Of a stretch of 60,502 nt of DNA, positions 294 to 35,773 are shown piece by piece; position 1 is the stretch's first letter, and every line of letters begins with the position of its first letter. The notes under the pieces were generated by a model. That model was given only the letters and a program-made list of their open reading frames with translations. It did not search any database and was not told the DNA's origin. Where the stretch lies: IMG/VR virus record IMGVR_UViG_2061766007_000271; one strand, 5' to 3'. This stretch comes from an uncultured virus (IMG/VR IMGVR_UViG_2061766007_000271) (lineage: Duplodnaviria > Heunggongvirae > Uroviricota > Caudoviricetes). Position numbers and translations under genes: made by a program.

Positions 294-343
294 GGTAGAA
301 TCTCCTATATTGGTTAAATGGTGAACTTCGTTGTCACATCATA

Positions 344-371
344 AATATACATCAAAACGCCACGAATGCAA
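344..371 (-). promoter_or_regulatory. class A promoter TTGCAT-N12-GATG-TATATT
   Basis: one of 6 copies with identical spacing in 1-6 kb. Confidence 0.7.
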
Positions 372-462
372 CACGCACACTCGCATTTTTCCTACTTTTT
401 CCATCCATTTCCAACCAGCCAGCGAATATGATATTCAATATCTCATGGCTGGCGCGGACAAC

Positions 463-490
463 AAAAAAGGCAGGAGCAAATGCTCCTGCC
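463..490 (-). terminator. intrinsic terminator (representative; most cassettes in 1-35 kb end with one)
   Basis: GGCAGGAGC/GCTCCTGCC stem plus T-run on minus strand. Confidence 0.8.
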
Positions 491-497
491 ATGCGTA

Positions 498-845
498 TCA
501 GATTTCGACCTCTCCGTTCTTCATCCGTTTCAGTTTGATTTCAAGGTACTTCTTTTCATCCTGCATTTCCTTGATTTTCTGCTTCAATTCGTCAATCTCA
601 ATCTTGACCTTGTAGCATTCTGCTTCTCGCTGGTTGTTAAAGAGGTACTTTTTGTTGGCTTGCGGATTGCTGGACGAGTAGTAGGCAAAGCCCCATGTGC
701 CATCGTCATGGAAAGAAATGCCGTACTTCACGTTTACAATCCACGTCCAGCCACAATCCATCCAAATCGTCTCCAAGACGTAGAATTTCGGTGACGATTG
801 AAATGCCTTGCGTTGCTTGTCGGTTTTAACCAAGTCGTATCTCAT
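498..845 (-). CDS. hypothetical protein, C-terminal coiled coil
   Basis: ORF track; ATGA overlap with upstream ORF. Confidence 0.75.
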   Translation of the reverse strand: MRYDLVKTDKQRKAFQSSPKFYVLETIWMDCGWTWIVNVKYGISFHDDGTWGFAYYSSSNPQANKKYLFNNQREAECYKVKIEIDELKQKIKEMQDEKKYLEIKLKRMKNGEVEI

Positions 846-1006
846 TTCCTGCCCTTTTTGTTATTGCCCTTGCCATGCTTCTGCTTCGGATGCTTCTTGC
901 ACCATGCAACGTACACGGCAAATGGAGTACCCAAGTCAAGCCGTTCGATTGCCCTCATGTCGTAGGGTGAGTAAGTTGCGCTGAAAATCATGCTGTTTCC
1001 GTACAT
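842..1006 (-). CDS. small basic hypothetical protein (54 aa, MYGNSMIFSA...)
   Basis: manual translation; AGGAG SD; stop overlaps next ATG. Confidence 0.65.
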   Translation of the reverse strand: MYGNSMIFSATYSPYDMRAIERLDLGTPFAVYVAWCKKHPKQKHGKGNNKKGRK

Positions 1007-1052
1007 TGTCGTTCACTCCTTTGAGTTTTGGATTTTTGATTGTTGTACCATA

Positions 1053-1080
1053 AATATACATCTGTTTTCCATGAATGCAA
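1053..1080 (-). promoter_or_regulatory. class A promoter
   Basis: TTGCAT-N16-TATATT. Confidence 0.7.
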
Positions 1081-1210
1081 ATCCGCCTGATGATTTTTCT
1101 CCAAGCCATCCAACGTGCAGTACATATTCAATATCATATATGGGTTCGTGGCAAAAAATCAGGCGGTATGGGAATTACTCCCATACCGCCATTTGTGGTT
1201 TCCTTACGCC

Positions 1211-2407
1211 TTACCGATTGACCACCATTTTCGTAAAGTTCTTCTGATGCTCTTTTTTGAGATTCATGAAAAAGACAGGGAAGAAGCCACGCATTTGGTA
1301 GTATTTGCTTTCAGCGTCCTTTATGTCAACGGTGTCCGTACCGATGACCTTGCCGTAGTCATGGATGAAATCATCCATGCTGACGTTGCAGGCGTACTTC
1401 ATGACCTTTTCAAGTATCTTGACGCTTTGGCTGATTTCCTCGTCTTTCTTTTCGTCAATCTTGTCCAACGCCTTGCTCATTCCCGAAAGGAATTCGTTTG
1501 ACGTGTAATTGGCATCCATCTTCTTTTCATCGGTCTTGACCGTTGGATTGCCAATCAACTTGTTGAACTTGACCGCCAACGCCTTGTCGGTGAACTGATG
1601 CAGGACTTCACCTGTTTTGAATTCGACCGCACAAACCGTAGTCTGACCTCTCAGAGCATCGTCAATCAAGTCAAACGAGCAGAACCAAAAGTTCTTTTCA
1701 TCGAACTTGTCAATCACTTCCTGTGCCGAATTGTAAATTGCCATCGCAATCGTTTTCGAGTTTAAAGCGTAGTAATTGTTGGCTTTCACCGTCACGAAAT
1801 CGCCATTCTTGAAGAAAGGCACGTCATTTTTTGCCGTGTAGATGTGAACCGCGTACTTGACCGCTTCATCTTCGTTTGAAAAGCAAATCGCCTTTCCGCT
1901 TTTCTTTTCCGCGACAAAGTAGTATTGACGGAAATCAATCCCATTCTCAATGTCACGCAAGCACTTGAACTTGTACTTGCTTTCATTGTGCTTGTTGATG
2001 TAGTCCAATGCGTATTTGCACTTGGTGAACATCGCCACAACGTAATCATCCGCATTGTAAACCACGTGCAGGTCTTTGTATTCGCCGTAATGGGGGTAAG
2101 CACGATTGCAACCGTTTTCACTCCGCATTTCCGCTTTCTTATTGTCGTAGGGCATGATGCTCATGCAATCCTCGCCATTCGCTTCCTCAATGGTATCGTA
2201 AACCTTGAAAGCGTAATTGTCGTTGGATTCGACCACACGGACGGTCTTTTGACTGTCATAACGTAAATCATTCGGCAAATCTGCCTGTGATTCGTCAAGC
2301 ACCTTAATGAAATCATCACGGTACTTTTCAGCGACCTTTTTTGTATTAAAGCAAACGCCCTCATCGTACATGTCGCCCATCGTAACAACAAAATAATATT
2401 TTTTCAT
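1211..2407 (-). CDS. hypothetical protein with internal repeats (YFVV...F...A)
   Basis: long ORF; start MKKYY after AAGGAG. Confidence 0.85.
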   Translation of the reverse strand: MKKYYFVVTMGDMYDEGVCFNTKKVAEKYRDDFIKVLDESQADLPNDLRYDSQKTVRVVESNDNYAFKVYDTIEEANGEDCMSIMPYDNKKAEMRSENGCNRAYPHYGEYKDLHVVYNADDYVVAMFTKCKYALDYINKHNESKYKFKCLRDIENGIDFRQYYFVAEKKSGKAICFSNEDEAVKYAVHIYTAKNDVPFFKNGDFVTVKANNYYALNSKTIAMAIYNSAQEVIDKFDEKNFWFCSFDLIDDALRGQTTVCAVEFKTGEVLHQFTDKALAVKFNKLIGNPTVKTDEKKMDANYTSNEFLSGMSKALDKIDEKKDEEISQSVKILEKVMKYACNVSMDDFIHDYGKVIGTDTVDIKDAESKYYQMRGFFPVFFMNLKKEHQKNFTKMVVNR

Positions 2408-2449
2408 GATGCAAGCTCCTTTGTTTGTTGATAAAATCGTTGTACCCAT

Positions 2450-2477
2450 AATATACATCCGTTCGCCACAAATGCAA
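2450..2477 (-). promoter_or_regulatory. class A promoter
   Basis: TTGCAT-N16-TATATT. Confidence 0.7.
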
Positions 2478-2647
2478 CCAAAACCAAAACAAATTTTTCA
2501 TTTTTGCCAGCCCACGCACCAGCCCATCCGACCTGCGGTGGCATACATATTCAATATCATGAACCTTTCAGGACGTGGGCACAAAAAATGGCGGGAGCCA
2601 GCAACCAACCAACTGACTTCCGCCACGGAAGAAGAACTATTATTCGC

Positions 2648-2896
2648 TTACTTCTTCCTGTTGTTCCAACCACAAGAACAACTCGCACTATGAATCATGC
2701 AAACTCCGTTTTTTGTACAAGCTACGAGGTACTGATGACCCTCATGCTCGATGGCATGAAAGTTGATGAAATGCTCGTTCGGCGGAGCGGGTATCGCGAA
2801 TCTCTCACGGAAATTCGTCATCGTAAATCCGCTGAACAGGAACACCGCAATTGCCCCGATGATTATCATCACTAAAAGTTTATTATGATTTTTCAT
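2648..2896 (-). CDS. membrane-anchored hypothetical protein (HSASCSC C-terminus)
   Basis: N-terminal hydrophobic helix; SD. Confidence 0.75.
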   Translation of the reverse strand: MKNHNKLLVMIIIGAIAVFLFSGFTMTNFRERFAIPAPPNEHFINFHAIEHEGHQYLVACTKNGVCMIHSASCSCGWNNRKK

Positions 2897-2908
2897 GGTT
2901 CCTTTTCC

Positions 2909-3049
2909 TCACTGAAAACACATTGAAAACGCCGTCTGAATCCCTTTGACCGTGTAAACACATGTCGCCAACCAGAGAATGAAAGTGACAATTGCCATCA
3001 CATCCATCATGACTTTCGCGAACATGCTGGAAATCATGTCGAAAAGCAT
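2909..3049 (-). CDS. small membrane protein
   Basis: hydrophobic 46-aa ORF after AAGGA; start revised from track. Confidence 0.5.
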   Translation of the reverse strand: MLFDMISSMFAKVMMDVMAIVTFILWLATCVYTVKGIQTAFSMCFQ

Positions 3050-3065
3050 GCTTTCATCACCGTCC

Positions 3066-3245
3066 TTACTTGCTGAACTTCCAACGCCGTGTATTCTTCT
3101 CGTAGCCCTTGCCAGCCTTGCCCGATGCATTGGACTTGCCACGCTTCCTGCCGACATTCCACCAATCACCGTAAGAGACACGTGCTGGTGCTGGAATCAC
3201 TTCGTAACCGTAGTCGCCAAAACCTGTGAACATATCGTAACCCAT
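3066..3245 (-). CDS. small basic hypothetical protein (59 aa, MGYDMFTGFG...)
   Basis: manual translation; AAGGAG SD. Confidence 0.6.
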   Translation of the reverse strand: MGYDMFTGFGDYGYEVIPAPARVSYGDWWNVGRKRGKSNASGKAGKGYEKNTRRWKFSK

Positions 3246-3321
3246 TTTTCAAACTCCTTTGTTGTTTTAAATGTTGTCTATCCACCGTGCCGTCAGCACC
3301 TGCTGACGGCACATTTACAAA

Positions 3322-3591
3322 CTATTCCTTACAGTCCAATTCGCATTCATTGACCTTGTAGTTGGTACCGCTTCCATCGTACCATTCGTTTTCCTCTCCA
3401 AGGTCATGTCTCATCTCGTCCAACTGCTCCTTCAATGTTTCAGTCCAGCCCTCGTCATTGTCGTACCATCCCTTGATTTTCTTTTCCATGTACTTGATGA
3501 GTTTAGCTTTCGTCAAGAAGACTTTTTCAGCCACGTAACCTGGGTCATCATTATCATGCTCGTACATGAGAACAAACACACGTCTTGCCAT
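3322..3591 (-). CDS. hypothetical protein
   Basis: ORF with AGGAGA SD. Confidence 0.8.
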   Translation of the reverse strand: MARRVFVLMYEHDNDDPGYVAEKVFLTKAKLIKYMEKKIKGWYDNDEGWTETLKEQLDEMRHDLGEENEWYDGSGTNYKVNECELDCKE

Positions 3592-3608
3592 TTTGCTTTC
3601 TCCTGTCT

Positions 3609-3854
3609 TTACGCGACCGTCACGATGTACTCGGTGCCTTCCAAGTCAACCCACCGACCGTAGCCCTCGACCGCCTTGGAGCAACGCCCGATTTCCTCTT
3701 CCATGTCTGCGTTGATGGAGTTGTCGCCGAGTTTCGCAAACCAGCGTGCTTTCACATTCTGCTCCCACCATTCGAGGAGTCCTTCCTTGGTGGTAAACTG
3801 GACTTTTCTTATTTGACCCGTGATGTTTTTGATGTTGACGATGAACTTTTCCAT
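3609..3854 (-). CDS. hypothetical protein (resembles N-terminus of 9127-9519)
   Basis: ORF with AGGAGA SD. Confidence 0.8.
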   Translation of the reverse strand: MEKFIVNIKNITGQIRKVQFTTKEGLLEWWEQNVKARWFAKLGDNSINADMEEEIGRCSKAVEGYGRWVDLEGTEYIVTVA

Positions 3855-3916
3855 TGTTGTCTCCTGTGGTTGCTGTTCTGGTTGTTTTTTCTTTCCTCTC
3901 GCCTGCCGACACCATT

Positions 3917-3944
3917 AATATACATCCTGATTCCGAGAATGCAA
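3917..3944 (-). promoter_or_regulatory. class A promoter
   Basis: TTGCAT-N16-TATATT. Confidence 0.7.
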
Positions 3945-4188
3945 TTCTCCTCAGCGTCTTTTCTGAAAAAAGCCCAGAAAAAACCACGTCAAGATAGGTT
4001 CCTTATACATATGGTACACGTGCATTAATTTCTTCTAAGGAAAACACCGCCGTGCTCCAGACGCATCACCACGTCTCCATTAGGAAGATGATATTCAATC
4101 TATCATCATTCATCGCAGGCACAAAAAAGGGAAGAGCGGTGATGCTCTTCCCCAATGTCCTAGTTACTTGTTCAAACTCGCAAGATAA

Positions 4189-4458
4189 TCAATGCTTTTC
4201 AGCAAGTTTCTCACGCTTTCTTTTCAACGTGTTTATCTCTTGTTCAAGCGTCCAAACAAGTTTATCAATCGCTTCAAGCGTACCCTGTTGCGGATTCTTG
4301 GTTCTCGCAGTCTCAAAAGTCGAACCATCATAATAAGCACTCACATGGTAGCAATCCCCTATGTCGTGGATGTTGAGCGTCAGATTGCCCATGTGTGCCC
4401 TGTGCGTGTCGTTGCTGAAACGTTCAAAACCATTAGCGTCTAGCCAATTGTAAAACAT
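4189..4458 (-). CDS. hypothetical protein
   Basis: ORF with AAGGAGA SD. Confidence 0.8.
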   Translation of the reverse strand: MFYNWLDANGFERFSNDTHRAHMGNLTLNIHDIGDCYHVSAYYDGSTFETARTKNPQQGTLEAIDKLVWTLEQEINTLKRKREKLAEKH

Positions 4459-4478
4459 GATTCATTCTCCTTGTCACT

Positions 4479-4880
4479 TCAATGTTGCGTCTTGAAAATC
4501 TCGTCATTCATGAAAGTGCTGATGTTGACTTCTCCCATGAATTCCTCGTTTTCCTTGTTCCAATCACGGCTTTCAACTTGGAGTTCTCGCGTTGCACGTT
4601 GCAACGCTTCAAACCCCTGTTGCGTTCTGAAAACCTGTGCTTCATGCAAGTCGTTGAAAAGGACTTTATCCTTGATGTTCAAACCAAGATTGACACGGAG
4701 CATCATGTCGCTACCAAGACGGTCGCTTCTGAATTCCACGTCTTTCGGTGTCAGTTTGATGATTTCGTGTTTCCACGGATTATGCAAATTTCCATCCAGC
4801 CTTACGACAAGATAGAGTTCCTTTGCATCCGTAAATGCTTCAAGCCCCTTGCCGATGGTCAAGTCGTTGCTGTATTTCAT
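4479..4880 (-). CDS. hypothetical protein
   Basis: ORF with AAGGAG SD. Confidence 0.8.
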   Translation of the reverse strand: MKYSNDLTIGKGLEAFTDAKELYLVVRLDGNLHNPWKHEIIKLTPKDVEFRSDRLGSDMMLRVNLGLNIKDKVLFNDLHEAQVFRTQQGFEALQRATRELQVESRDWNKENEEFMGEVNISTFMNDEIFKTQH

Positions 4881-4921
4881 GATTCCGCTCCTTTTGATTC
4901 GTTTAATTAATCGTTTACCTT

Positions 4922-4949
4922 AATATACATCCGACTTTGCTTTTTGCAA
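4922..4949 (-). promoter_or_regulatory. class A promoter
   Basis: TTGCAA-N16-TATATT. Confidence 0.7.
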
Positions 4950-5058
4950 ATCACGGATGAAATTTTTTCCGCGACACAAATATTGAATATATAATCACAA
5001 GACGGACGCAGACATGAAAAAAGGAGTGGCAATTACGCCACTCCCTTTTGGAATCATC

Positions 5059-5304
5059 TTATTGTTCTACTTTGTCAAGCCAAACCCGATTGTTCCAATG
5101 ACCGCCATTGTATTCATCATGCCACGTAAAGTATTCACGATGAATTTCTATGTCCGTAGGGTTGTCGGGGTCGCTTGGTGTGTTCTCACGGTACGTGTTG
5201 TTCAAGCCTTGTTCTTCCTTGTACTTCTTCCAAGCCTCGGTCATGCTATCGGCTTCAACTGTGGTAAACCCACGATTGTAGTCTTCGATGTTGTATTTGC
5301 TCAT
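5059..5304 (-). CDS. hypothetical protein (VEA.S..EA motif)
   Basis: GGAGG SD, start MSKYN. Confidence 0.75.
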   Translation of the reverse strand: MSKYNIEDYNRGFTTVEADSMTEAWKKYKEEQGLNNTYRENTPSDPDNPTDIEIHREYFTWHDEYNGGHWNNRVWLDKVEQ

Positions 5305-5305
5305 G

Positions 5306-5647
5306 TCAATCCTCCCACACAAATTCCCAGTATTGGTAAGTCATGTCGTATTTCGTGCCGAACAGTTCGTAATCACCCATGTCTTCCCAACGCCCAACGT
5401 TAATCAGCACATCAGCCATCCGTTCAGCCCACTTGTCCAAATCTTTATTATGAAATGCTTTCATGCGTTTAAGCATTTCAACATCAGATGCGTCAACATT
5501 GGCATCATTTGTGCGTTTCTCCAAATCGTCAATCTTGTTTTCGTAGTTTGTCTTGATGCTATCCTTGACAAACGCTTTGACGGAATTGATGGATTGGAAA
5601 GCATGGGGTTCTTTTTCATTGATTAAAACAAGGTAGCCGTCCAACAT
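5306..5647 (-). CDS. hypothetical protein
   Basis: ORF with AAGGAGA SD. Confidence 0.8.
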   Translation of the reverse strand: MLDGYLVLINEKEPHAFQSINSVKAFVKDSIKTNYENKIDDLEKRTNDANVDASDVEMLKRMKAFHNKDLDKWAERMADVLINVGRWEDMGDYELFGTKYDMTYQYWEFVWED

Positions 5648-5679
5648 GGTTCATTCTCCTTTGATGATTGATTGGTTGA

Positions 5680-5892
5680 TTAGCGGTTCACATGAAATTC
5701 AAAACCACAATGACAGTAGCCTGTGTCGTTTGAAATCTCTTCTGAAATGTAGTCCTCGATTTCATCGTCAGACAAATCCTCGTCCACATCGTACTCCATC
5801 TGCTTCGGCAAGGAATCGAGAATTTCCTGCTTGTCTTCACTTTCATCTACATCCCATTCGATGTTCGTCACGGTCACTTTCACGGTCTTCAT
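5680..5892 (-). CDS. acidic hypothetical protein, paralog of 24961-25230 (VTNIEWDVD...LP)
   Basis: shared motif; SD. Confidence 0.8.
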   Translation of the reverse strand: MKTVKVTVTNIEWDVDESEDKQEILDSLPKQMEYDVDEDLSDDEIEDYISEEISNDTGYCHCGFEFHVNR

Positions 5893-5943
5893 GTTTCGTT
5901 CCTTTGTTTTCTAATGATTGGAATCTTTATCATTCACAACAAT

Positions 5944-5971
5944 AATATACATCCATATGCATAAAATGCAA
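5944..5971 (-). promoter_or_regulatory. class A promoter
   Basis: TTGCAT-N16-TATATT. Confidence 0.7.
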
Positions 5972-6034
5972 CAAGCGACCGATGAAAAATTCCCATTCGG
6001 TCGCCTGTCTTTTCGGTGCGGTCTGCATGAATAT

Positions 6035-6220
6035 TCAATCCTTCATACCGTCTTTCTTGTCGCACGATTCGCATTTATCATCAACATGTTTCTGCTGTTC
6101 CATCATCTCAAACATTTTTTCCCATTGTTCCTTTGCGAATGTTTCTTCATCCCTCAATTCTCTGCCAAGAACAAACGAAACCACGGCGACAATCACCACG
6201 AAAACAATAAAAGCACACAT
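6035..6220 (-). CDS. small membrane-anchored protein
   Basis: GGAGG SD; hydrophobic N-terminus. Confidence 0.65.
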   Translation of the reverse strand: MCAFIVFVVIVAVVSFVLGRELRDEETFAKEQWEKMFEMMEQQKHVDDKCESCDKKDGMKD

Positions 6221-6339
6221 TATATACCTCCGTTGTAAAATAAGTTTAAAACAAACATCACAACGTATTATACGGTATTATTCCTGCTTTTTATTCTTGC
6301 TTTTTGAAGCAATTGCAATTCGGACTGTGCAATGTATCT

Positions 6340-6404
6340 ACAGTTATCTAAATCAGCAATTAATCATATAAAATCATATAATTTTACATGACTTCGTTGC
6401 GAAT
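6340..6404 (-). mobile_element. IS607 right-end copy (rest lost in gap)
   Basis: one mismatch versus 10900-10964; abuts 10-N gap. Confidence 0.7.
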
Positions 6405-6414
6405 NNNNNNNNNN

Positions 6415-6750
6415 ACTGATGATGTTGAACTCAAAGAACAGTGGATTTATGGTGCGTGACCGCTTGAGTATCTCCTCGGGTACTGTCATGAACAGTTCCT
6501 TCACCACGAGCATCTTGAGCATGGCTTTCCTGCCCATGTCCACGAGTTCCTTGCAGAGGTCGGACGCCATCTGCTCGTTTGTCCTGCCGTTGCGTTCCTT
6601 CTCCCACTTGTCGCCAAGCCACAGGGAAAGAAACTCAACCTGATGGTCTTTCCACTTTCCACTCTCGACCCACTCCTTCACTCCGTTTATCTCAAATTCG
6701 CTGTCGGATATTTGTCTTTTAAGGAATTCATAGTCATTCGTCTTGAACAT
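6415..6750 (-). CDS. hypothetical protein, 3' end lost in gap
   Basis: start MFKTND after AAGGAGAG. Confidence 0.7.
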
Positions 6751-6781
6751 TTGCAACTCTCCTTGCATGGGGTTTCATCAC

Positions 6782-6853
6782 GCCGAATTGAAGTGCTGGC
6801 AAGCACCAGCCTCTCGGCACTCACATTATATGCCAATTCAAAACAGATTTCAA
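6782..6853 (-). promoter_or_regulatory. class B promoter (TTGAAA-N17-TATAAT) + leader hairpin
   Basis: GTTGAAATC...TGGCATATAAT-N6-GCCGAGAGG...AATTCGGC. Confidence 0.85.
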
Positions 6854-7003
6854 CGGAAAAGCAAAAAATTTGCATATCCAGCGACCAGGACAGATATGCA
6901 ACTGGCACGTATTCAATGTGCATGGCATTCGCATGAATGAAAAAAAGGGTAGTCTTCAAGACCACCCCCAAATCACACGCTGTGCGTCACACTGTATAGT
7001 GCA

Positions 7004-7327
7004 TCACACGTTGTAGTGCCGTTCCAGCCAGCCGAGGCATATCCTCCTCACTCTCGCCCTCGGCATATCCTGCACCCCGTCGTCCTTTGTATAGACCGTC
7101 CTCTTCCAAGGGTGCATGGCATGCTCCATCACCACACGCCTTGACGAGAACGATGGGACTGACGCCTGGCTCGCAACCTCGTCGGCTATCTGCTCCTTGC
7201 ATCTGTTCCACACCACGGCTTCCTTTTCATCTGGCGGTATTGACACACCGTGCATCTGGATTAATTCACGCCACGCCATTGAGAACAACGGCTTCACCGT
7301 CATGTACACTTCCTGCTTGTGCCACAT
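7004..7327 (-). CDS. hypothetical protein
   Basis: ORF with AAGGAGA SD. Confidence 0.65.
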   Translation of the reverse strand: MWHKQEVYMTVKPLFSMAWRELIQMHGVSIPPDEKEAVVWNRCKEQIADEVASQASVPSFSSRRVVMEHAMHPWKRTVYTKDDGVQDMPRARVRRICLGWLERHYNV

Positions 7328-28789: not shown

Positions 28790-28817
28790 AAGCCTATCTC
28801 CATTTTAAGGTGGGACT

Positions 28818-28890
28818 GCCGAACTGGGGAGTGGCAGGTGTGCCATCCTCTCGGCACTCACATTATATGCCATTTTCAAACAGATTTCAA
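28818..28890 (-). promoter_or_regulatory. class B promoter + leader hairpin
   Basis: consensus match. Confidence 0.85.
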
Positions 28891-29047
28891 CAGGAACAAC
28901 AAAAAAACACGGAATGCAATCACAGCCATATTCAATGCATACCCAGTTGAGGAAAACAAAAAAATGAGTGGTCTGGACACAAACGCCAATAAATGTCCAG
29001 ACCACCCGAGACGCACTTGCCAAAAAAGTGCGTCCAAGACCTTATTC

Positions 29048-29233
29048 TTATTGTTCAGCCTCGCCAATCACCTCGTAGCCACTGTCGCCAAGTTCAAGGT
29101 TGGAAAAGTCCACCTCTCCATTCTCCACCTTGTTCTTGAGGATTTCCACTGCCTCTTCAGCAGTTTCCGCCTCTATGTTCTCAAACAGAGCCGAATGCTC
29201 CCAGTACTCAACCGTGAAGATTTTCTTTGCCAT
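29048..29233 (-). CDS. DpnD/PcfM-like small protein (IEAETAEEA)
   Basis: motif; SD. Confidence 0.75.
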   Translation of the reverse strand: MAKKIFTVEYWEHSALFENIEAETAEEAVEILKNKVENGEVDFSNLELGDSGYEVIGEAEQ

Positions 29234-29265
29234 AAGTTCACTTCTCCATTATAGGTTCAGCCTCT

Positions 29266-29338
29266 GCCGAATTGAGGAAAGAGCAAATGCTCTCCCTCTC
29301 GGCACATACATTATATGCCATTTTCAAACGGATTTCAA
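29266..29338 (-). promoter_or_regulatory. class B promoter + leader hairpin
   Basis: consensus match. Confidence 0.85.
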
Positions 29339-29471
29339 CAGAACTGAATGAAATATCTTCATCAGCCACCATACCTAGGCACAAGCTAATATTCAATCAC
29401 CAATGCCTTTGCCTGTGAATGAAAAAAGGGGGCGGTGGTCTTATGAACCACCGCCCCACGATGTTGCGGAA

Positions 29472-29816
29472 CTATCTCATGACGAAATACTCGTCCTCGT
29501 CCAGCGAGAACCAGATGAGATTTCCTGTGAGGCAACACCTCTTCTCGTAATGCTCATTCCAGTATGTAATGTGCCTGTCATAAGTGCCGATATACTCTAT
29601 ATCCGTAGGCTTTACATTAGCCACATACTCCACTTCCACGCCACATTTGTCGCACACGGCGTTGCTTGTTCTGCTCCACACGGTGCTTTGCTTTCCACAC
29701 CTGGGGCACTTGGGTGTCTTCCTCTTGAAGACGATGCGGATTTTCTTTCCGTCTGCACGACTTGCGTGGTGGTTGATGAGATTGATTGCGTCTGTCTGCG
29801 TGATGATTTTTCTCAT
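29472..29816 (-). CDS. zinc-ribbon WYL/SH3-like paralog 3
   Basis: PKCPRCG...CDKCG; close to 30018-30365. Confidence 0.75.
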   Translation of the reverse strand: MRKIITQTDAINLINHHASRADGKKIRIVFKRKTPKCPRCGKQSTVWSRTSNAVCDKCGVEVEYVANVKPTDIEYIGTYDRHITYWNEHYEKRCCLTGNLIWFSLDEDEYFVMR

Positions 29817-29854
29817 TGTGTGGCTCCTGTTTGCTGGGGGTGTGGTGTAAAAAG

Positions 29855-29909
29855 GGCAAACCCATTCTCTGGGCATATATATAATATGCCATTTCCAGAC
29901 GGATTTCAA
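29855..29909 (-). promoter_or_regulatory. class B promoter, degenerate leader
   Basis: TTGAAA-N17-TATTAT, GCCCAGAG. Confidence 0.75.
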
Positions 29910-30017
29910 CGCCTGTCGAAGAAAAAACCCACACGAAAACGCAAGTGCCACGGCATCACATTCAATGCATCATTCCTTTCCTTGAATGAAAAAAGACAAT
30001 GAACGCCATCATCGCTG

Positions 30018-30365
30018 TCACATCACGAAATATTCGTCCTCGTCTATGGAGAACCACATCAGATTTTCAATGAGGCAATGCCTCTTCTGGCAATGTTCGT
30101 CAAGGCATGTAACCCACTTGTCATAATTGCCTATGGAATATATTGTCATTGGCTTTACGTCAGCCACATACTCCACTTCCACGCCACATTTGTCGCATAT
30201 GGCGTTGCTCATTCTGCCCCATGCGATGCTTTGCTTTCCGCAACTGGGGCACTTGGGGTATTGTCTCCTGAACATGATGTGCAGTTTTCTTCCGCTGAAA
30301 TACTGGTCTCTGGCGTATTCGTTGAGAATGCCGACCGCCTCATTCCGCAAGATGATCTTCCTCAT
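30018..30365 (-). CDS. zinc-ribbon WYL/SH3-like paralog 4
   Basis: PKCPSCG...CDKCG. Confidence 0.75.
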   Translation of the reverse strand: MRKIILRNEAVGILNEYARDQYFSGRKLHIMFRRQYPKCPSCGKQSIAWGRMSNAICDKCGVEVEYVADVKPMTIYSIGNYDKWVTCLDEHCQKRHCLIENLMWFSIDEDEYFVM

Positions 30366-30413
30366 GTGCTTTCATGCTCCCTGTCTGATTTGAAAATGTT
30401 TTTGTCTGTACGC

Positions 30414-30442
30414 ATTATATGCCAACTGGACACGGATTTCAA
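30414..30442 (-). promoter_or_regulatory. class B promoter without leader hairpin
   Basis: TTGAAA-N17-TATAAT. Confidence 0.8.
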
Positions 30443-30547
30443 CAGGACTGGATAAAAAAAGCATCCATGTGATTGAATACAACTGCACATGCCAGTGGAA
30501 CAAAAAAACAGGCGTGGCAAATGCCACGCCCACAGTCCAATGCCGAC

Positions 30548-31033
30548 CTATTTCCCAGTGTTGATGATTTCCACTATCCTCTTGAGGTCTGCCTCGCTGA
30601 TTTCCCTGTATACCCAGCCACTTCCATAGACATATCCGTTGTCGTCGTACACGCCTGCCTTCTTCAACGCCTCGCAAGCCATCTGGTAGTCGTATTCGCC
30701 GTTGCCGAATGCACGTTCCAGTTCCTGCTCCTGCCGTTCAGTCCCGCTGTGCATTCCGTTGAGGTGGTTCCTCTTCCACAAGCCGACTATCTCGTTGTAG
30801 AGCCTGTTGTACTTCAGCGAGCAATGCTCCTGTATGTAGTCAAGGCACTGACCACACAGGATGCAGTCGGTGTGCCTCGCATTCCAGACAACTCCGTGTG
30901 CGGAGAATTCCAGCCTGCCATCGTCCTTTGTACACAGTTGAAGGACAACATCGACCTCGTTGAGTTTGCGTCCACTGTTGGACAACGCTTTCTTTCCAAA
31001 GGAAATTATCCGTTTCAGTTCAACATTCTGCAT
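30548..31033 (-). CDS. conserved phage protein (GQCLD...W...HLN.M..G...GY.YGS.W)
   Basis: motif; GGAGA SD, start MQNVEL. Confidence 0.8.
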   Translation of the reverse strand: MQNVELKRIISFGKKALSNSGRKLNEVDVVLQLCTKDDGRLEFSAHGVVWNARHTDCILCGQCLDYIQEHCSLKYNRLYNEIVGLWKRNHLNGMHSGTERQEQELERAFGNGEYDYQMACEALKKAGVYDDNGYVYGSGWVYREISEADLKRIVEIINTGK

Positions 31034-31066
31034 TGTGCGAATTCTCCACGTTAAGGGTTGCACTCT

Positions 31067-31140
31067 GCCGAATTGAGGAACAGGGCAGATGCCTTGCCTC
31101 TCGGCACTTACATTATATGCCAATTCAACAAGGATTTCAA
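31067..31140 (-). promoter_or_regulatory. class B promoter + leader hairpin
   Basis: consensus match. Confidence 0.85.
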
Positions 31141-31622
31141 CACGAATGCGAAAAAAATCCAAACCAGTCCAGTCAACGGTGATTGAATAACTGACCCATT
31201 CTCTCAAGGGTGATGGTCTTTCCAATCTGCGATTCACGCCCATTCGGCTTTCGCCATATGAGGCACAGTCCCATGCAACCGAACAGAGGCGTCCTGCTTC
31301 TGCGTATCCTGCCGACAATCACTGATTCCACATCGTCTGAAGTCAGAATGCTCTCTGTCTGGAATTCAAGTGCGTCAAGCCAGCAGTTCCGTTCCAGTTT
31401 CCTTATCACATACGAATTCATCTGAACAACGCTCCAAAACAGAAAAGAAAGGCACGCACATTCATAAGGCACAAGGCAAATGTATTTTTCATTTCATATG
31501 CTCCAATTCACATCAAACCATCGTTTCTTCGTATTATACCACATGCATATTCAATCCCAAGGCAACCAATGCAGGCATGAAAAAAAGAGTGTCCGATTGG
31601 ACACGCCCTTTGCTTCACCTGC

Positions 31623-31844
31623 CTATTTGCTTTTCCATTTCAGCATGCCCTGCACGTTAAGTGCGATGTACACGATGAACATGGCGATTTGCGACCAGTT
31701 GGGTGTTCCAAGCAGATTCACCGCTATCCACAGCAGGTTGGAGATTATCCACACCATGAAGCCCATACGCTTCTGGTAGTTTATGAGGACGTTTCCACCG
31801 AGTGAAAATGCAAGTGCGACTAGCGAAACGATGTTGAGTGCCAT
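31623..31844 (-). CDS. small multi-TM membrane protein (half-PnuC-like)
   Basis: GF.VWIISN.LW...Y..LNV.G..KW. Confidence 0.7.
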   Translation of the reverse strand: MALNIVSLVALAFSLGGNVLINYQKRMGFMVWIISNLLWIAVNLLGTPNWSQIAMFIVYIALNVQGMLKWKSK

Positions 31845-31896
31845 AAGTGTTGTCTTTTCTCCTTGTTTTGGGGTTCCTCTCTCTTGAAACGCCAAT

Positions 31897-31924
31897 AATA
31901 TAGCACAAGTGCGGGATTATGCAA
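31897..31924 (-). promoter_or_regulatory. class C promoter TTGCAT-N12-GTGC-TATATT-AT-TGGCGTTT
   Basis: shared with both sigma-pair promoters. Confidence 0.7.
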
Positions 31925-32179
31925 ATAGGTTTTTCACATTTTCTTGAAAAAAGTGCGTTTTCCCTGCAAGGGAATGCCACATGTATTCAATCAGCACGGA
32001 CATGGAGAACGAAAGAGGGCTGGACACCTATATCCAGCCCTCTGTGGCAGACGGAGACACAAATGCCTNNNNNNNNNNNNNNNNNNNNNNNNCGAATGTA
32101 TTCAATATGACCATCCCCTGTGTGGAAACAAAAAAACGAGGGACTGGCGAAAACCAGTCCCTCTATTTGGTGGCAAGCG

Positions 32180-32407
32180 TTACTTGCCAAAACTCTTCTC
32201 TTGGCACTTGAGGCAAAGCCCGCTTATGAGCGTTTCACGCTTTTCAGTGGACAGGTTGGGGAATGCGTCCTGCATCAACGCTCCATTCCGCCTTTTCTCA
32301 ATGCCCTCGTTGGGGACTTCCACAACGGTCTGCTCTCCGCAGAAGGGGCAGACGATTGTGAGGACGGTTGTGGTGGCGTTTTCGGTTACGTTTGCGATGT
32401 TAAGCAT
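32180..32407 (-). CDS. zinc-binding phage protein (CPFCG...QDAFP.LS...RE.LISG.C..CQ)
   Basis: motif; start MLNIAN. Confidence 0.8.
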   Translation of the reverse strand: MLNIANVTENATTTVLTIVCPFCGEQTVVEVPNEGIEKRRNGALMQDAFPNLSTEKRETLISGLCLKCQEKSFGK

Positions 32408-32442
32408 TTTTGTTCCTTTTGTTGGGGGGTGTGGGGGTTTAT

Positions 32443-32515
32443 GCCGAATTGAGGAAAGGGCAAATGCCCTGCCTCTCGGCACATACATAATATGCCAATT
32501 CAAGACGGATTTCAA
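32443..32515 (-). promoter_or_regulatory. class B promoter + leader hairpin
   Basis: consensus match. Confidence 0.85.
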
Positions 32516-32572
32516 AGCACACGATGAAAAAAGACCAAAAACAATGAAATTTTTTCCGCAACAGGAAAAGAC

Positions 32573-33067
32573 GAATGGGGTGTGGGGAGCAAGCGACCAG
32601 AAAAGCGACCAGAACGCATTTGATTGCAAGGGGGTATGGGTGATAAGGGGACAAGCCATTGTTGCGAATACAGAGGCTCTGGAAAGGGAATATGCAAAAG
32701 CCAGACATGCAAGGGGGTGTCTGGGGAATAAGTCAGCCAGAATGCAATCGCCAATCTGTGGGCAGGCGAATGCAACCAGAAAGCCGAATGGGGGTCTGGG
32801 GAGCAAGGTGGCAAGAAACGGGCATGTATTCAATACCAGAACTGCTACTGAAAAAACACAAATGGGCGTATGGGTGGAAAGCGGTCATTCAAGACAAGGG
32901 TTGCGAGTGCATTGATGGTCGCCTGTTGATGCGACTGGGGGTGTGGGGTGAAAGACAGGTTTCGCATTTCCAATGCATTCGTGCAGTCGAGATGCAAGGG
33001 GGCATATGGGTGGAATGAATGAGAGCCGTTGCAAGGCAAGCAAAAAAACGCAACACTGGGTATGGGT
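32573..33067 (+). repeat. non-coding array of ~8 GGGGTRTGGG-like motifs at 53-83 bp spacing
   Basis: copies near 32577, 32630, 32713, 32790, 32864, 32937, 32998, 33058. Confidence 0.65.
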
Positions 33068-33200
33068 GCAAAAACGCATTCATGCAATGGATTGAATATG
33101 CATGAATGGACAAGAGCGGGGTGTCCCCACAGGTGGAAACAAGACAGGTGGTATATGACGTGGACTGTGGTGCAGACGCAATAGGCGGTCCAAAGTCAGC

Positions 33201-33273
33201 TCCGTAACAACTTGAGAAATCAAGCAAAGAATCTTATCAGAATTGTAGATTTTGGTAGATTTTAAGTTACGGA
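33201..33273 (+). ncRNA. orphan minimised TnpB omega-RNA-like scaffold / IS right-end remnant
   Basis: aligns to 19474-19568 with compensatory closing stem. Confidence 0.55.
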
Positions 33274-33347
33274 CATTCGCAGACACAGAAAAATCCCCTG
33301 TCGCTCCACAATGCGACAGGGGATTCCACACGCCTGTTTCCAATCCG

Positions 33348-33704
33348 CTATGGATTGGTCTTGGAAACGAGGCTCTGCACCAGTTCACATCCCTCTTTCG
33401 TCAAGGAATGCACTGGTATTTCATAAAACTGGTTGTCTTCATGACCCATTCCATAAAGCACCACCTTCTTCTCAATTATGCCAGCGTCAATGAGGAATTC
33501 CTCTATCCAGCAGTCGCCGAACCTGTTGTTCACGGCAATCATCGTGTCTGGCAGAATGCCGAAGTCGCAGGTGAGCGTAGCCATGATAACGCCTGTCTTC
33601 ACATCAACTGCCCACAGCAGAAGCGTGTTGTGCCTGATGTGCCTGTCCACAAGCAGTTCCACCTTCGCTCCGTTCAACGCACCCACTATGAATTCGTTTT
33701 TCAT
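33348..33704 (-). CDS. hypothetical protein (DUF4313-like, tentative)
   Basis: ATLT.....L......V.N......EFL...GI; start MKNEFI. Confidence 0.7.
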   Translation of the reverse strand: MKNEFIVGALNGAKVELLVDRHIRHNTLLLWAVDVKTGVIMATLTCDFGILPDTMIAVNNRFGDCWIEEFLIDAGIIEKKVVLYGMGHEDNQFYEIPVHSLTKEGCELVQSLVSKTNP

Positions 33705-33729
33705 GTTTCTCTCTGCCTCCGTCAATGAC

Positions 33730-33758
33730 ATTATATGCCAAAACAATAGTGATTTCAA
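33730..33758 (-). promoter_or_regulatory. class B promoter without leader hairpin
   Basis: TTGAAA-N17-TATAAT. Confidence 0.8.
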
Positions 33759-34257
33759 CAAAGGCACTTGATATTTTCCACGCCATTGGTGAAAAAGGCA
33801 ACCGCTTGGACTCCAAAGCCACGCATGCATTGAATGCATTCGCATTCCTTGATCAAATATTGAGACACGCCTTTGAGGGGCAACACGCCTGTCTGCAAAA
33901 GCCATTTGCTTCAATACGAAAGCCACGCACGAAATCTCGTCCACGATTTCCAGACTGGCGAGATAAAGCCATGTTCGTGATGATGTGCCTTGCTTCACAG
34001 CCGAAATGCAGACCTCTGCTTCCTTAATGGCGAGTACAGTCTCTGTCTTTCATAAGACGAGGAATGTGCGTCGCCAGTCCCATATGCATTGCGTATTCAA
34101 TGCCGATGCCATGGATGGAAAAACAAAAAATGAGGACTGGCAGAAACAGAGCCTTCAGCCGAAGCAAGCCACCACAACCTGCGTATGATACGGCTTTNNN
34201 NNNNNNNNNNNNNNNNNNNNNNNNNNNNCCAATTCATTCCACGCACAAAACCTGACT

Positions 34258-34431
34258 TCAACCGAAAATCATCTTGAACAGCATAGCCACCAGTCCACGC
34301 TTTCCGTCCACGCTTTCCACTGGCTTGGCTGTCGGCTTCTCGGCAACAGCCACCACGCTGTCCTTGCTTTCCTGACACGCCACATTCCTTGTTGCGTCAC
34401 GGAACGATTTATTGACATTGCCGATATACAT
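34258..34431 (-). CDS. small hypothetical protein
   Basis: AAGGAGG SD, start MYIGNV. Confidence 0.6.
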   Translation of the reverse strand: MYIGNVNKSFRDATRNVACQESKDSVVAVAEKPTAKPVESVDGKRGLVAMLFKMIFG

Positions 34432-34432
34432 A

Positions 34433-34735
34433 TTATTCAGCCTCCTTCTCCGCCGTTGCGAAGATTTCCTCTCGCCTGTCCTCTTCGTCAAGGCAGTCCA
34501 TTGCGTTGCGGAACATTTCGCCAAAGCCGATGTTCTCCTCCATATATTCTATGACCTCCTCCATCATCAGCGAAAGCAGTCTCTCCTGTTGCCTCTCATT
34601 CAGCTTTGCGAACCTGTCCCTGAAGTCCTCGTCTGCGTATGCCTCCACATCATCAGCCTCAATGGAAACGAGGCTGTATCCTGCCACAACGTCTTCCTGC
34701 CTTTCAAGTTCCTGCTTCACTTCCTCTCTTGTCAT
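34433..34735 (-). CDS. acidic hypothetical protein
   Basis: AGGAGA SD. Confidence 0.8.
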   Translation of the reverse strand: MTREEVKQELERQEDVVAGYSLVSIEADDVEAYADEDFRDRFAKLNERQQERLLSLMMEEVIEYMEENIGFGEMFRNAMDCLDEEDRREEIFATAEKEAE

Positions 34736-34773
34736 TGTCAAAGTCTCCTATTTTTGGGTTAAGGGTTTCAGTT

Positions 34774-34813
34774 TCGGCACTTGCATTATATGCCAGTCGG
34801 GACTGGATTTCAA
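34774..34813 (-). promoter_or_regulatory. class B promoter, truncated leader
   Basis: consensus then GCCGAAAC. Confidence 0.8.
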
Positions 34814-34872
34814 CGGCTGTGCCGATTTTTTTCCACGCCCGACTGGATTTTTCCAGTCGGGCAGGATTTGTG

Positions 34873-35520
34873 TTAGCGTTCCATATACGCCATCACCTTT
34901 GCTACTGCGATACGCTTGATTTTGCGTATATGTTCGTGGGAACAGCCGATGATGTCAGCCAGTTCCTCAAGTGTCCCGCCATTAGCCACGCCTTCTATGA
35001 CTGTCCTCTCTACATTGTCAAGGGTGGCAAGTGCATTGACCACTTCACGCCTGTCCTCTCTTGCAAGCACGATTTCCTGCGTGGTAGGCTCCGTTGCGTC
35101 ATATACGCTGTCGGCAAGGTCATTGCCGTTTTCGTCGGTTTCGTCAATGCTTATGCCTCTTGTTATGCCACGTTCCTCTTCAGTCATACGGCTGTACCTC
35201 TTTGTATGGACTGGATAGTATTTCGGCATAGTGTCCATGAGGTGATACCTTATTCTCGTATAGGCGTGGTTTGAGAAAAGCCCTCTTTCGGGGTCGAAAG
35301 TCCTGATTGCGTCCATAAGGGCGATTATGCCTTCTGACTGGACATCTTCCATTGGGAATATGCCGAAGTCTATGTCCAGCGACATTGCGACTTTGTAGAT
35401 AAGTCCCATATTGCCAGTTACCAGTTTGTCAAAGACCGCCTGACTGCCAGTTTGACGGTACTCCATTACCAGTTCGGCATTCTGTGCATTTGTGTTGTTG
35501 GCGTTTGTGTTTGTTGTCAT
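34873..35520 (-). CDS. sigma70-family sigma factor (regions 2 and 4)
   Basis: NMGLIYKVA...EDVQSEGIIALMDAIRTFDPERG.FSNHA; TLEELADIIGCSHEHIRKI. Confidence 0.9.
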   Translation of the reverse strand: MTTNTNANNTNAQNAELVMEYRQTGSQAVFDKLVTGNMGLIYKVAMSLDIDFGIFPMEDVQSEGIIALMDAIRTFDPERGLFSNHAYTRIRYHLMDTMPKYYPVHTKRYSRMTEEERGITRGISIDETDENGNDLADSVYDATEPTTQEIVLAREDRREVVNALATLDNVERTVIEGVANGGTLEELADIIGCSHEHIRKIKRIAVAKVMAYMER

Positions 35521-35605
35521 TTGCTTTTCCTTATGGTTAAGGGTTGCACCTGTCGGGAGTTTTGGCAGGTCAGCCATTCGGCGTTCCTCTCCCGAAAACG
35601 CCTAT

Positions 35606-35633
35606 AATATAGCACGAATACAAGAATATGCAA
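35606..35633 (-). promoter_or_regulatory. class C promoter
   Basis: TTGCAT-N16-TATATT-ATAGGCGTTTTC. Confidence 0.75.
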
Positions 35634-35773
35634 ATAGGCAAACCGCATTTTTTTGAAAAATATGCGTTTTTTATGAAAAAAGCATAAAAACGCCAGAAAC
35701 AAGCATACAAGCAAGCATATCCAAAAGCATATATGATGTATAGGGACGTTTCTAAATGCCCTGTATTCGCCTT

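Follow-up and report, generated by a model that had tools for sequence, protein, structure and literature searches.

Promoter-early stem-loop (PeSL) cassettes of T4-type phages (Arbiol et al. 2010, PMC2839356; Comeau et al. 2014, PMC4122927) consist of a stem-loop that serves as terminator, a tract rich in A and T, an early promoter of the sigma-70 type whose spacer measures 17 base pairs (bp), a Shine-Dalgarno sequence and a start codon, and carry small orphan genes. Their repeats serve as recombination substrates, and cassette insertions and deletions as well as minicircles are documented for them. In SPO1, a Bacillus (Firmicute) phage, the host-takeover module holds 26 genes in 12.4 kilobases (kb) of the terminal region and is characterised (PMC6873191) by small early genes, short operons, strong promoters and ribosome sites, and phage-encoded later sigma factors. 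All of these PeSL parts and the recombining repeats, together with the SPO1 traits (early timing being predicted here), are found in an array of expression cassettes on the minus strand of the uncultured tailed virus IMG/VR IMGVR_UViG_2061766007_000271, whose 60,502 nucleotides (nt) are referred to below as the window. Both systems had been named as analogues in the original prediction for this DNA, and feature comparison identified them as the right ones. The array is read here as being, probably, an early arm driven by host sigma-A, similar to PeSL cassettes and SPO1, to which a 5'-terminal stabiliser hairpin and a stoperator-like box have been added. The parts, their order, geometry and copy numbers were observed directly.

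The repeated promoter, termed class E, has the form GTTGAAATC-N10-TGGCATATAAT and is present in 33 minus-strand copies between 6.8 and 34.8 kb, the number and span originally predicted, with the first T of TGGCA at positions from 34795 down to 6835. When up to two mismatches were allowed, TGGCATATAAT matched at 42 sites on the minus strand and at 10 on the plus strand; the -35 block GTTGAAATC, or a variant of it differing by one base, lay exactly 10 nt 5' of 33 of the former and of none of the latter. The stricter pattern GTTGAAAT-N11-TGGCATATAAT yielded 22 matches, all on the minus strand, against 0.00 expected from 100 shuffles, while GTTGAAATC with at most one mismatch yielded 73 matches against 26.9 ± 5.5 expected. 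Class E was rated by a consensus scanner as TTGAAA-17-TATAAT or a one-base variant, 11/12 of the sigma-70 consensus. Each unit runs in the order T-tract, GTTGAAATC, 10-nt spacer, TGGCATATAAT and a 6-nt discriminator. The predicted T-rich UP-like tract, scored as a run of at least five T ending 9-12 nt 5' of the -35 hexamer, was present in 26 of the 33 units, and the predicted GGAG Shine-Dalgarno motif lay within 16 nt 5' of the start codon in 28 of the 32 gene-bearing units. A single open reading frame (ORF) follows 22 of the 32 productive class E promoters and at least 41 units were found in all, in agreement with the earlier description of about 40 cassettes, each with its own promoter and mostly one gene.

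A leader hairpin had also been predicted. The class A form, GCCGAGAGG and CCTCAATTCGGC (or a close variant of CCTCAATTCGGC) separated by a variable stem, was found in 25 of the 33 class E units; the other eight comprise two with a class B hairpin (P10396 and P7825), one with a composite hairpin (P25952) and five in which the hairpin is absent or degenerate. Every one of the 25 class A hairpins, like the two of class B, starts exactly 17 nt after the T of TGGCA, at the seventh base after TATAAT, and its first base is predicted from promoter geometry to be +1 of the transcript. Class A leaders extend 64-77 nt from the predicted +1 to the start codon. Their hairpins are 36-42 nt in length, fold at -11 to -23 kcal/mol and possess a 3-nt bulge in the stem; as the length varies in the apical part between fixed ends, an RNA stem fits better than a rigid DNA operator of two half-sites. 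Shuffling of the variable inner part alone weakened the fold (mean z -1.92; z < -1.64 in 14 of 25). When the units were aligned by fitting to a covariance model, pairing was found in 87.1% of cells, and compensatory changes occur at 3 of 14 pairs; the covariation score of 0.119, compared with 0.094 in shuffles, was reached by 3 of 500 shuffles and exceeded every slid control. Evidence that the hairpin acts as an RNA structure is thus moderate. No leader reached the gathering score of any Rfam family, and the five matches obtained between 20 and 32 kb at E values up to 1 fell far below gathering, none of them on the leader hairpin. The leader covariance model recovered only the 25 copies from which it was built, with weak antisense matches. 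The C-rich tract described as frequent in the original prediction is exact (GCAACCCC) in six units, and a run of at least three C occurs in 15 of 25. A role for this tract in masking the ribosome site was rejected, as folds gave three base pairs or fewer.

An alternative main function for the hairpin is that of a recognition site, either for processing of the RNase III type, which would cut read-through transcripts back to one common 5' end, as in SP82 and T7 early mRNAs, or for a phage RNA- or DNA-binding protein that shuts off all the early genes together. The lower nine base pairs are conserved in sequence as well as in pairing, which suggests a sequence-specific reader, although gene conversion among copies could give the same invariance. 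The bulge in the stem agrees with such a site, as do the tight packing of the units and the weak or absent terminators at 10 of 41, which make read-through likely. Bacillus RNase III sites have reportedly been recorded in SP82 early mRNA, but a paired length of approximately 14-16 bp is short for RNase III. The hairpin begins at the predicted +1 in every copy, a position that a 5'-end protector needs and a processing site does not. A recognition site as its main function is accordingly considered rather unlikely, and a 5'-terminal stabiliser is preferred.

The terminators predicted at the 3' ends of the units, each a hairpin followed by a T-run, were found for most of them. A scanner identified 39 terminator-like sites between 19.5 and 36.3 kb (15.4 ± 4.4 expected) and 21 between 1 and 19.5 kb (14.2 ± 3.4 expected). 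In a separate fold test, a hairpin with T-run was located 5' of 31 of the 41 promoters; two of the 31 are doubtful (33740 and 14367), and two real terminators seen by the scanner (7926 and 4153) were missed. The heptamer ATTSAAT matches 64 times in the window against 22.6 ± 4.7 expected, and at least one such box lies within 170 nt 5' of the -35 hexamer in 31 of the 33 class E units, in line with the box placed before the promoter in the original prediction. Among the 55 boxes in positions 1-36300, 45 read in the minus (transcribed) sense and 49 are intergenic, though this stretch is 59% coding. A run of at least five T precedes 36 of the 55 by 17-28 nt, and 30 of these 36 lie at 21-24 nt. The distance from box to -35 hexamer varies from 36 to 150 nt, on which ground the box was rejected as a promoter activator site of fixed distance. 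Fixed with respect to the T-run and variable with respect to the -35 hexamer, the box belongs to the terminator and not to the promoter; the terminators of class M units, described below, are also trailed by a box.

Two modules thus describe the cassette best: at its 5' side T-tract, promoter, hairpin and ribosome site, and at its 3' side the terminator with the oriented ATTGAAT(A) box. Neighbouring cassettes are joined by a linker, from the box to the next T-tract, that varies in length and sequence. The parts of the three-part regulatory code proposed earlier are all present, but they group as these two modules. A tentative and improbable suggestion is that the box acts as a roadblock, where a bound phage protein would meet RNA polymerase as its active site reaches the U-tract and so, as a single factor, tighten or later silence termination and read-through at about 40 units simultaneously. 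If true, bacterial viruses would possess an equivalent of the pause-plus-release terminators used by eukaryotic RNA polymerase I, and the box would be a stoperator coupled to a terminator. Together with the 5'-hairpin leader it would make a plug-and-play cassette of promoter, leader, gene, terminator and box, whose junction is the linker between box and T-tract.

The cargo comprises 58 minus-strand ORFs with a median length of 89 amino acids (aa), 52 of them of 135 aa or fewer. No paralogue within the array was detected for 50 of the 58 at E < 1e-3; the remaining ORFs form a Zn-ribbon family of four, one further pair and the pair of sigma factors encoded on the minus strand. Isoelectric points are below 5.5 for 31 of the 58 ORFs and above 8.5 for 18, so that of the earlier characterisation as mostly unrelated, small and acidic the first two terms hold and the third applies to 31 only. 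The predicted run of self-contained expression units for small, mostly unrelated ORFs is supported. None of the 55 cargo ORFs scanned reached a curated Pfam cut-off. A strong PHROG match was obtained for one of the 55, ORF 21028-21240, to phrog_27033 (function unknown) at 3e-34; its product shares 65% identity with a protein encoded by a Monoglobales phage found in human faeces, in which the gene lies within an ordinary operon. No named host-takeover family was found in the PHROG scans, bar one weak PnuC-like match. The acidic 168-aa product of ORF 24222-24728 (minus strand) has a confident stored model (predicted template modelling score, pTM, 0.85) and resembles viral clusters; the modelled fold is similar to the DUF1281_C / YubB-like ferredoxin-fold family at a template modelling (TM) score of 0.55, which may serve as a lead only. 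In the protein atlas a Zn-ribbon ORF is poorly modelled. The adjacent Zn-ribbon paralogues 29472-29816 and 30018-30365 (minus strand) are 58% identical.

The original prediction had assumed a single promoter class, which was not borne out, as three classes (E, M and S) were found. The same parts bracket nearly every ORF from 6.8 to 34.8 kb, as predicted, but between 331 and 6800 six copies of a different promoter take their place. This class M promoter, TTGCAT-N16-TATATT with GATG just before the -10 hexamer, occupies the leftmost 6 kb, where no class E promoter is present, and GATGTATATT occurs exactly six times, on the minus strand only. Class S has three copies, with the class M hexamers and longer shared flanks. 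Both classes match 9/12 of the consensus. Three sigma-70-family factors are encoded in the window (Table 1). Sigma-1 matches RpoD/RpoS-like factors in Pfam and PHROG 351 at 1.9e-41 and falls below NCBIfam cut-offs. Mirrored class S promoters of sigma-2 and sigma-3 flank a control region of approximately 470 bp (35634-36100), which could be a regulatory hub or a replication origin; the tandem repeats next to its box cluster were found by direct reading.

These factors raise the alternative that class E is read by a phage sigma, either sigma-1 with feedback on its own promoter P8990 or sigma-2 or sigma-3 made first from class S, in which case the array would consist of middle genes. Besides the presence of three sigma factors in the window, such a reading could draw on the regions 1.2 to 4 of sigma-1, which are those of primary-type sigmas, on the invariance of bases beyond the canonical hexamers, and on the mirrored class S promoters, which lie in a dedicated region with six boxes and tandem repeats, like an immediate-early hub. 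Class E, however, has 11/12 of the housekeeping consensus at 17-bp spacing. An unmodified host enzyme must moreover transcribe something, and class E is nearer to consensus than M or S. The extended class E motif was also found as single copies in 32 prokaryote genome contigs, of Clostridia without such a phage among others, where about four were expected (19 fixed bases, 596 gigabases). Names of gut Clostridia (Lachnospiraceae, Oscillospiraceae and related groups) are carried by 19 of the 32, some of the genera being presumed to belong there. This supports reading by the host housekeeping sigma factor and would indicate the host group. A phage sigma as the reader of class E is on balance unlikely, and host sigma-A is retained as the probable one.

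At six Lachnospiraceae loci the extended motif drives a small RNA of approximately 100 nt that ends in a terminator, beside a convergent small hydrophobic ORF. The small RNA of these loci (L010, L019, L027, L028, L035 and L011) has a 5'-proximal GCCG...CGGC hairpin and no Rfam match; with the ORF, which has its own promoter at several loci, it looks like a type I toxin-antitoxin pair. The class E promoter pattern had no match in viral contigs, and the pattern of promoter plus leader had none in viral contigs, none in genome contigs and one in metagenome contigs. A search of viral contigs guided by sigma-1 returned three loci at 30-46% identity, none with TTGA[AC]A-N16-18-TATAAT.

Across the 25 class A units, five sub-blocks (upstream flank, spacer, discriminator, hairpin apex and post-hairpin tract) are uncorrelated, with p > 0.05 in 9 of 10 Mantel tests. 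P31122 and P9879 share flank and spacer types and differ in their hairpins; P28872, P27990, P16662 and P13591 share one hairpin type and have different spacers. The metagenome contig L004 (1087 nt), which carries two promoter units and two genes, is 93% identical to and colinear with 9326-10407, but between the -35 hexamer and the hairpin its spacer and discriminator are of the kind present in P24046 and P26574 and differ from those of the orthologous P9879. This patch is identified as a conversion tract, evidently copied from another unit. The repeats thus recombine with one another at the sub-unit scale. The tandem pair P14461/P14367 looks like a trace of unequal exchange, and P14461 (14387-14480) could be the source of a tiny transcript or the scar of a lost cassette.

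Contigs of relatives were taken from four other cattle-gut runs, as pieces of 150-550 nt with at least 80% likeness. Joints within them were rejected as cassette reordering, as they lie inside the repeat with 24-68 nt on the shorter side and are read as multi-mapping of the repeat. The joint from 23243 to 20100 was likewise discarded as an artefact of the start of the stretch, its 16 inserted letters being the bases of the window left of 20100. Joints at 29.6-30.3 kb, in contigs from two runs, switch between Zn-ribbon paralogues and may reflect conversion or read mis-placement.

Two further explanations bear on the repeats as such. They might be selfish or recombinase-driven mobile elements, integron-like or resembling miniature inverted-repeat transposable elements, with terminator hairpin and box as the recombination site. 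The box does close each unit on its 3' side with constant spacing from a hairpin that varies, which is the place of attC in integron cassettes, and the linker between box and T-tract varies in length and sequence. However, scans of 26 larger and 55 smaller ORFs revealed no integrase or other recombinase family, the sole transposase-like gene being TnpB on the other strand; intrinsic termination accounts fully for the hairpins and T-runs; a promoter is present in each unit, which integron cassettes lack; and neither terminal inverted repeats nor target duplications were seen. Mobile elements are therefore very unlikely. A reading as an integron or as clustered regularly interspaced short palindromic repeats (CRISPR) was rejected, in the absence of repeat-spacer logic and of an integrase. 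The array or its cassette order could alternatively be an artefact of short-read assembly, given a metagenome assembly and repeat units whose likeness over 47-107 nt is 60-96%. Near-exact sharing is nevertheless confined to blocks below about 50 nt, 99% of the sampled words of 20.1-30.0 kb are contained in each of two runs from the source sample, the independent contig L004 has two promoter units in the same order, and the coding sequence between the repeats is unique, with normal coding statistics. An artefact of this kind is extremely unlikely.

Taken together, these data suggest the following course of events. On entry, host RNA polymerase with its housekeeping sigma factor (sigma-A) would fire the 33 class E promoters, giving short mono- or bicistronic mRNAs. 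For BsRppH, two or more unpaired 5' nucleotides are necessary (PMC3997798). The leader hairpin, which leaves none at the predicted +1, would shield the mRNAs from 5'-end-dependent decay (RppH, RNase J), and as a shared element would give each gene the same translation context, while the terminators would insulate the units from one another. The box would recruit a DNA-binding protein of the phage, both behind each unit and within the control region of sigma-2 and sigma-3, as a stoperator-like roadblock or silencer. Sigma-1, produced from P8990, would then switch on the TTGCAT/TATATT promoters (six class M and three class S) and thereby sigma-2 and sigma-3, in an SPO1-like cascade. At the sub-unit scale, invariant blocks of the repeats act as crossover points that generate mosaic units, and genes may be exchanged as in PeSL cassettes.

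Several observations weigh against this scheme. The start site, the timing and the sigma factor are all deduced from sequence. Conservation of the promoter exceeds the hexamers, with a G before the -35, ATC after the -35 and TGGCA before the -10; host sigma-A would not need these bases, and a dedicated phage sigma or mere concerted evolution could explain them. With regard to the hairpin, helices 1 and 2 (lower) are near-invariant and hence uninformative on structure, swapping of hairpin halves between units changed the fold only from -16.6 to -15.0 kcal/mol (mean cost 1.7 kcal/mol), and folding is equally good for the antisense and the sense strand (-17.2 versus -16.6 kcal/mol). The class A hairpin is absent from 8 of 33 class E and all nine class M and S units, so that it is not needed for expression as such. 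Of the proposal that the repeats allow cassette gain, loss and shuffling, the sub-unit mosaics and the conversion tract bear out one part, but no whole-cassette rearrangement was seen, the sole contiguous relative, L004, being colinear over its 1087 nt. Cassette order itself would depend on short-read metagenome assembly across 33 repeats.

Table 1. Promoters, sigma factors and associated features of the window. Coordinates of class E units span promoter and leader.
Feature	Coordinates	Strand	Remarks
Leftward arm	1..36216	-	at least 41 transcription units (33 of class E, six of class M, two of class S) with about 58 small ORFs
P34795	34736..34814	-	degenerate leader, no class A hairpin; ORFs 34433-34735, 34258-34431
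P33740	33705..33759	-	short leader, no hairpin; ORF 33348-33704
P32497	32408..32516	-	class A hairpin; ORF 32180-32407
P31122	31034..31141	-	class A hairpin; ORF 30548-31033
P30424	30366..30443	-	no hairpin; Zn-ribbon paralogue 30018-30365
P29891	29817..29910	-	degenerate hairpin; Zn-ribbon paralogue 29472-29816
P29320	29234..29339	-	class A hairpin; ORF 29048-29233
P28872	28790..28891	-	class A hairpin; ORF 28580-28789
P28441	28359..28460	-	class A hairpin; ORF 28167-28358
P27990	27905..28009	-	class A hairpin; ORFs 27650-27904, 27294-27611
P27133	27046..27152	-	class A hairpin; ORF 26728-27045
P26574	26487..26593	-	class A hairpin; Zn-ribbon paralogue 26154-26486
P25952	25853..25971	-	long composite leader hairpin; Zn-ribbon paralogue 25463-25852 (start inferred from paralogue alignment)
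P25317	25231..25336	-	class A hairpin; ORF 24961-25230
P24818	24729..24837	-	class A hairpin; ORF 24222-24728
P24046	23961..24065	-	class A hairpin; ORFs 23640-23960, 23369-23539
P23223	23138..23242	-	class A hairpin; ORF 22907-23137
P22686	22603..22705	-	class A hairpin; ORF 22363-22602
P22227	22147..22246	-	class A hairpin; ORF 22006-22146
P21853	21768..21872	-	class A hairpin; ORF 21495-21767
P21329	21241..21348	-	class A hairpin, apical stem a hybrid of two types; ORF 21028-21240 (phrog_27033)
P20866	20779..20885	-	class A hairpin; ORFs 20449-20778, 20209-20430
P20063	19980..20082	-	class A hairpin; ORF 19632-19979
P16662	16577..16681	-	class A hairpin; ORFs 16247-16576, 16041-16232
P15011	14927..15030	-	class A hairpin; ORF 14609-14926
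P14461	14415..14480	-	no gene; truncated leader leading to short hairpin and T6, 94 nt before P14367 (tandem pair)
P14367	14274..14386	-	class A hairpin; ORF 13959-14273
P13591	13504..13610	-	class A hairpin; ORFs 13255-13503, 12976-13164
P10396	10261..10415	-	class B hairpin and second terminator-like hairpin, 119-nt leader; ORF 10021-10260; conserved in L004
P9879	9793..9898	-	class A hairpin; ORFs 9538-9792, 9127-9519; L004 orthologue with converted spacer
P8990	8901..9009	-	class A hairpin; sigma-1
P7825	7752..7844	-	class B hairpin; ORFs 7350-7751, 7004-7327
P6835	6751..6854	-	class A hairpin; ORFs 6364-6750, 6035-6220
Class M promoter	5944..5971	-
Class M promoter	4922..4949	-
Class M promoter	3917..3944	-
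Class M promoter	2450..2477	-	before 398-aa ORF 1211-2407
Class M promoter	1053..1080	-
Class M promoter	344..371	-	before ORF 42-293
Class S promoter	31897..31924	-	inside array, before ORF 31623-31844
Class S promoter	35606..35633	-	before sigma-2
Class S promoter	36101..36128	+	before sigma-3; mirror partner of sigma-2 promoter
Sigma-1	8115..8900	-	RpoD/RpoS-like, regions 1.2, 2, 3 and 4
Sigma-2	34873..35577	-	regions 2 and 4
Sigma-3	36217..36855	+	divergent from sigma-2
Six ATTGAAT boxes	35866..36030	.	in sigma-2/sigma-3 control region
About five tandem 11-bp repeats	35777..35832	.	beside box cluster
Example 3' module	21394..21463	-	13-pair terminator hairpin 21463-21433, T-run, ATTGAAT box 21394-21400 19 nt after T-run

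The leader of P10396 (10261-10380, minus strand) contains a second strong hairpin with a T-rich tail between the class B hairpin and the ribosome site, and this second hairpin may be an attenuator.

The array is best explained as the leftward, presumably early, arm of a large tailed phage, probably virulent, from a cattle-gut metagenome, and this arm probably continues past the left end of the window. Scans with Pfam, PHROG and NCBIfam identified phage-type genes, namely an endolysin with LysM and Hydrolase_2 domains at 51631-52719, a protein similar to Clp and head-maturation proteases at 56050-56799 and a 5'-3' exonuclease at 54348-55307. No repressor or integrase was seen in the window, which therefore gives no indication of a temperate lifestyle, and the window contained no tRNA genes and no Rfam family at gathering score. 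The host is probably a Clostridium of the Lachnospiraceae or Oscillospiraceae type. The sequence originates from a bovine gut metagenome run; two runs of one sample contain 99% of it, and a search of sequencing runs detected fragments of relatives in four other studies. A 12-kb stretch compared by megablast with 50,697 phage records found no counterpart, nor did the 398-aa ORF when the phage collection was searched by tblastn, and the 782-aa and 398-aa ORFs used as protein guides recovered no relatives in viral contigs.

Ten masked runs of N are present in the window. They account for the low guanine-cytosine (GC) 'islands', which were rejected as foreign insertions, and for the apparent long ORFs 10924-12231 and 17037-19499. 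A TnpB/Cas12f-like gene at 17037-18200 (plus strand), between the cassettes of P20063 and P16662, is interrupted by N runs at 17113-17308 and 18130-18139, and only because of this masking does it seem 820 aa long. The gene has matches to PF07282 (1.4e-17) and to PHROG transposase families and looks like an IS200/IS605-type insertion into the array. No convincing minus-strand gene was found in 32440-33347 (900 nt, inside the array), where GC skew is reversed and the plus-strand ORFs (e.g. 32226-32915) have no family matches. A 65-nt A/T-rich sequence occurs twice at 99% identity (6340-6404 and 10900-10964), both copies abutting a masked N run; two paralogous genes, or a repeated element, may have this sequence as their common end. 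To the right of the array, from 37.7 to 47.0 kb, -10-like RWGTATAATA motifs with no evident -35 hexamer precede the rightward (plus-strand) genes starting at 37828, 39999, 43621 and 47024; these motifs may form a late promoter class for sigma-2 or sigma-3.

The array is among the most regular natural arrays of insulated expression units, with one promoter-leader design reused 33 times, and belongs to a rumen phage lineage with almost no sequenced relatives. Its promoter, leader and terminators are ready-made, strong and standardised parts for Clostridia, which are hard to engineer, and among the approximately 58 tiny, putatively early proteins candidates for host takeover and counter-defence can be sought. 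Two of the parts are new, namely the leader hairpin located exactly at the predicted transcript start and the terminator-coupled oriented box. The box is of the greatest interest and may reveal a new form of termination control.

Each of these features can be set against a described counterpart. Stem-loop stabilisers at the 5' end are represented by the ompA and papA types in E. coli and by the 5' stabilisers of B. subtilis (reviewed in PMC3997798); loss of such a stem shortens the half-life of the mRNA. They stand, as the leader hairpin is predicted to from promoter geometry, at the very 5' end of the transcript and leave too few unpaired nucleotides for the enzymes that initiate decay. The array hairpin differs in being common to 25 different genes and in having a lower stem conserved in sequence. 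Stoperators of cluster A mycobacteriophages such as L5 resemble the box (PMC9283540) in being short asymmetric sites, more than 20 per genome, that are intergenic and oriented with transcription, and in that the same type of site also occurs in a control locus in a promoter region. Stoperators are bound by the phage repressor, and elongation is thereby halted. The box, in contrast, is a near-palindromic 7-mer locked 21-24 nt behind an intrinsic terminator, and its binder is putative. Integron arrays likewise consist of tandem unrelated small genes with a hairpin-forming element after each, but their cassettes are promoterless, end in attC and depend on an IntI-type tyrosine recombinase with attI. 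The units described here have their own promoters, their hairpins are followed by T-runs and act as terminators, and the window yielded neither integrase nor attI.

With approximately 58 ORFs in 36 kb and far more uniform promoter and leader units, the array differs from the SPO1 module. Its cargo shows no homology to SPO1 genes in the PHROG scans, so that the likeness is one of logic and not of sequence, and the SPO1 module, with cargo gp37-60, lies in the terminal redundancy of a Herelleviridae genome; the window stops short of the genome ends. In comparison with PeSL cassettes, the array occurs in an unrelated phage of a Gram-positive-type gut setting and is far denser, with 33 copies in 28 kb. 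The terminator of a PeSL cassette lies directly upstream of the promoter; that of the array stands 60-150 nt from the -35 hexamer, with the conserved box and a variable linker between them. The array further adds an oriented box 21-24 nt behind the terminator and a conserved hairpin at the predicted mRNA 5' end. PeSL cassettes are carried by T4-like myoviruses, and no T4 core family was present among the Pfam and PHROG matches in this window. The array works like a PeSL system but is not a member of it; the PeSL principle, by which regulatory repeats also serve for crossing over, thus reaches phages of gut Clostridia. The best reading of the locus is as a denser variant of the known T4-type cassettes, to which a 5' hairpin and a stoperator-like box have been added.

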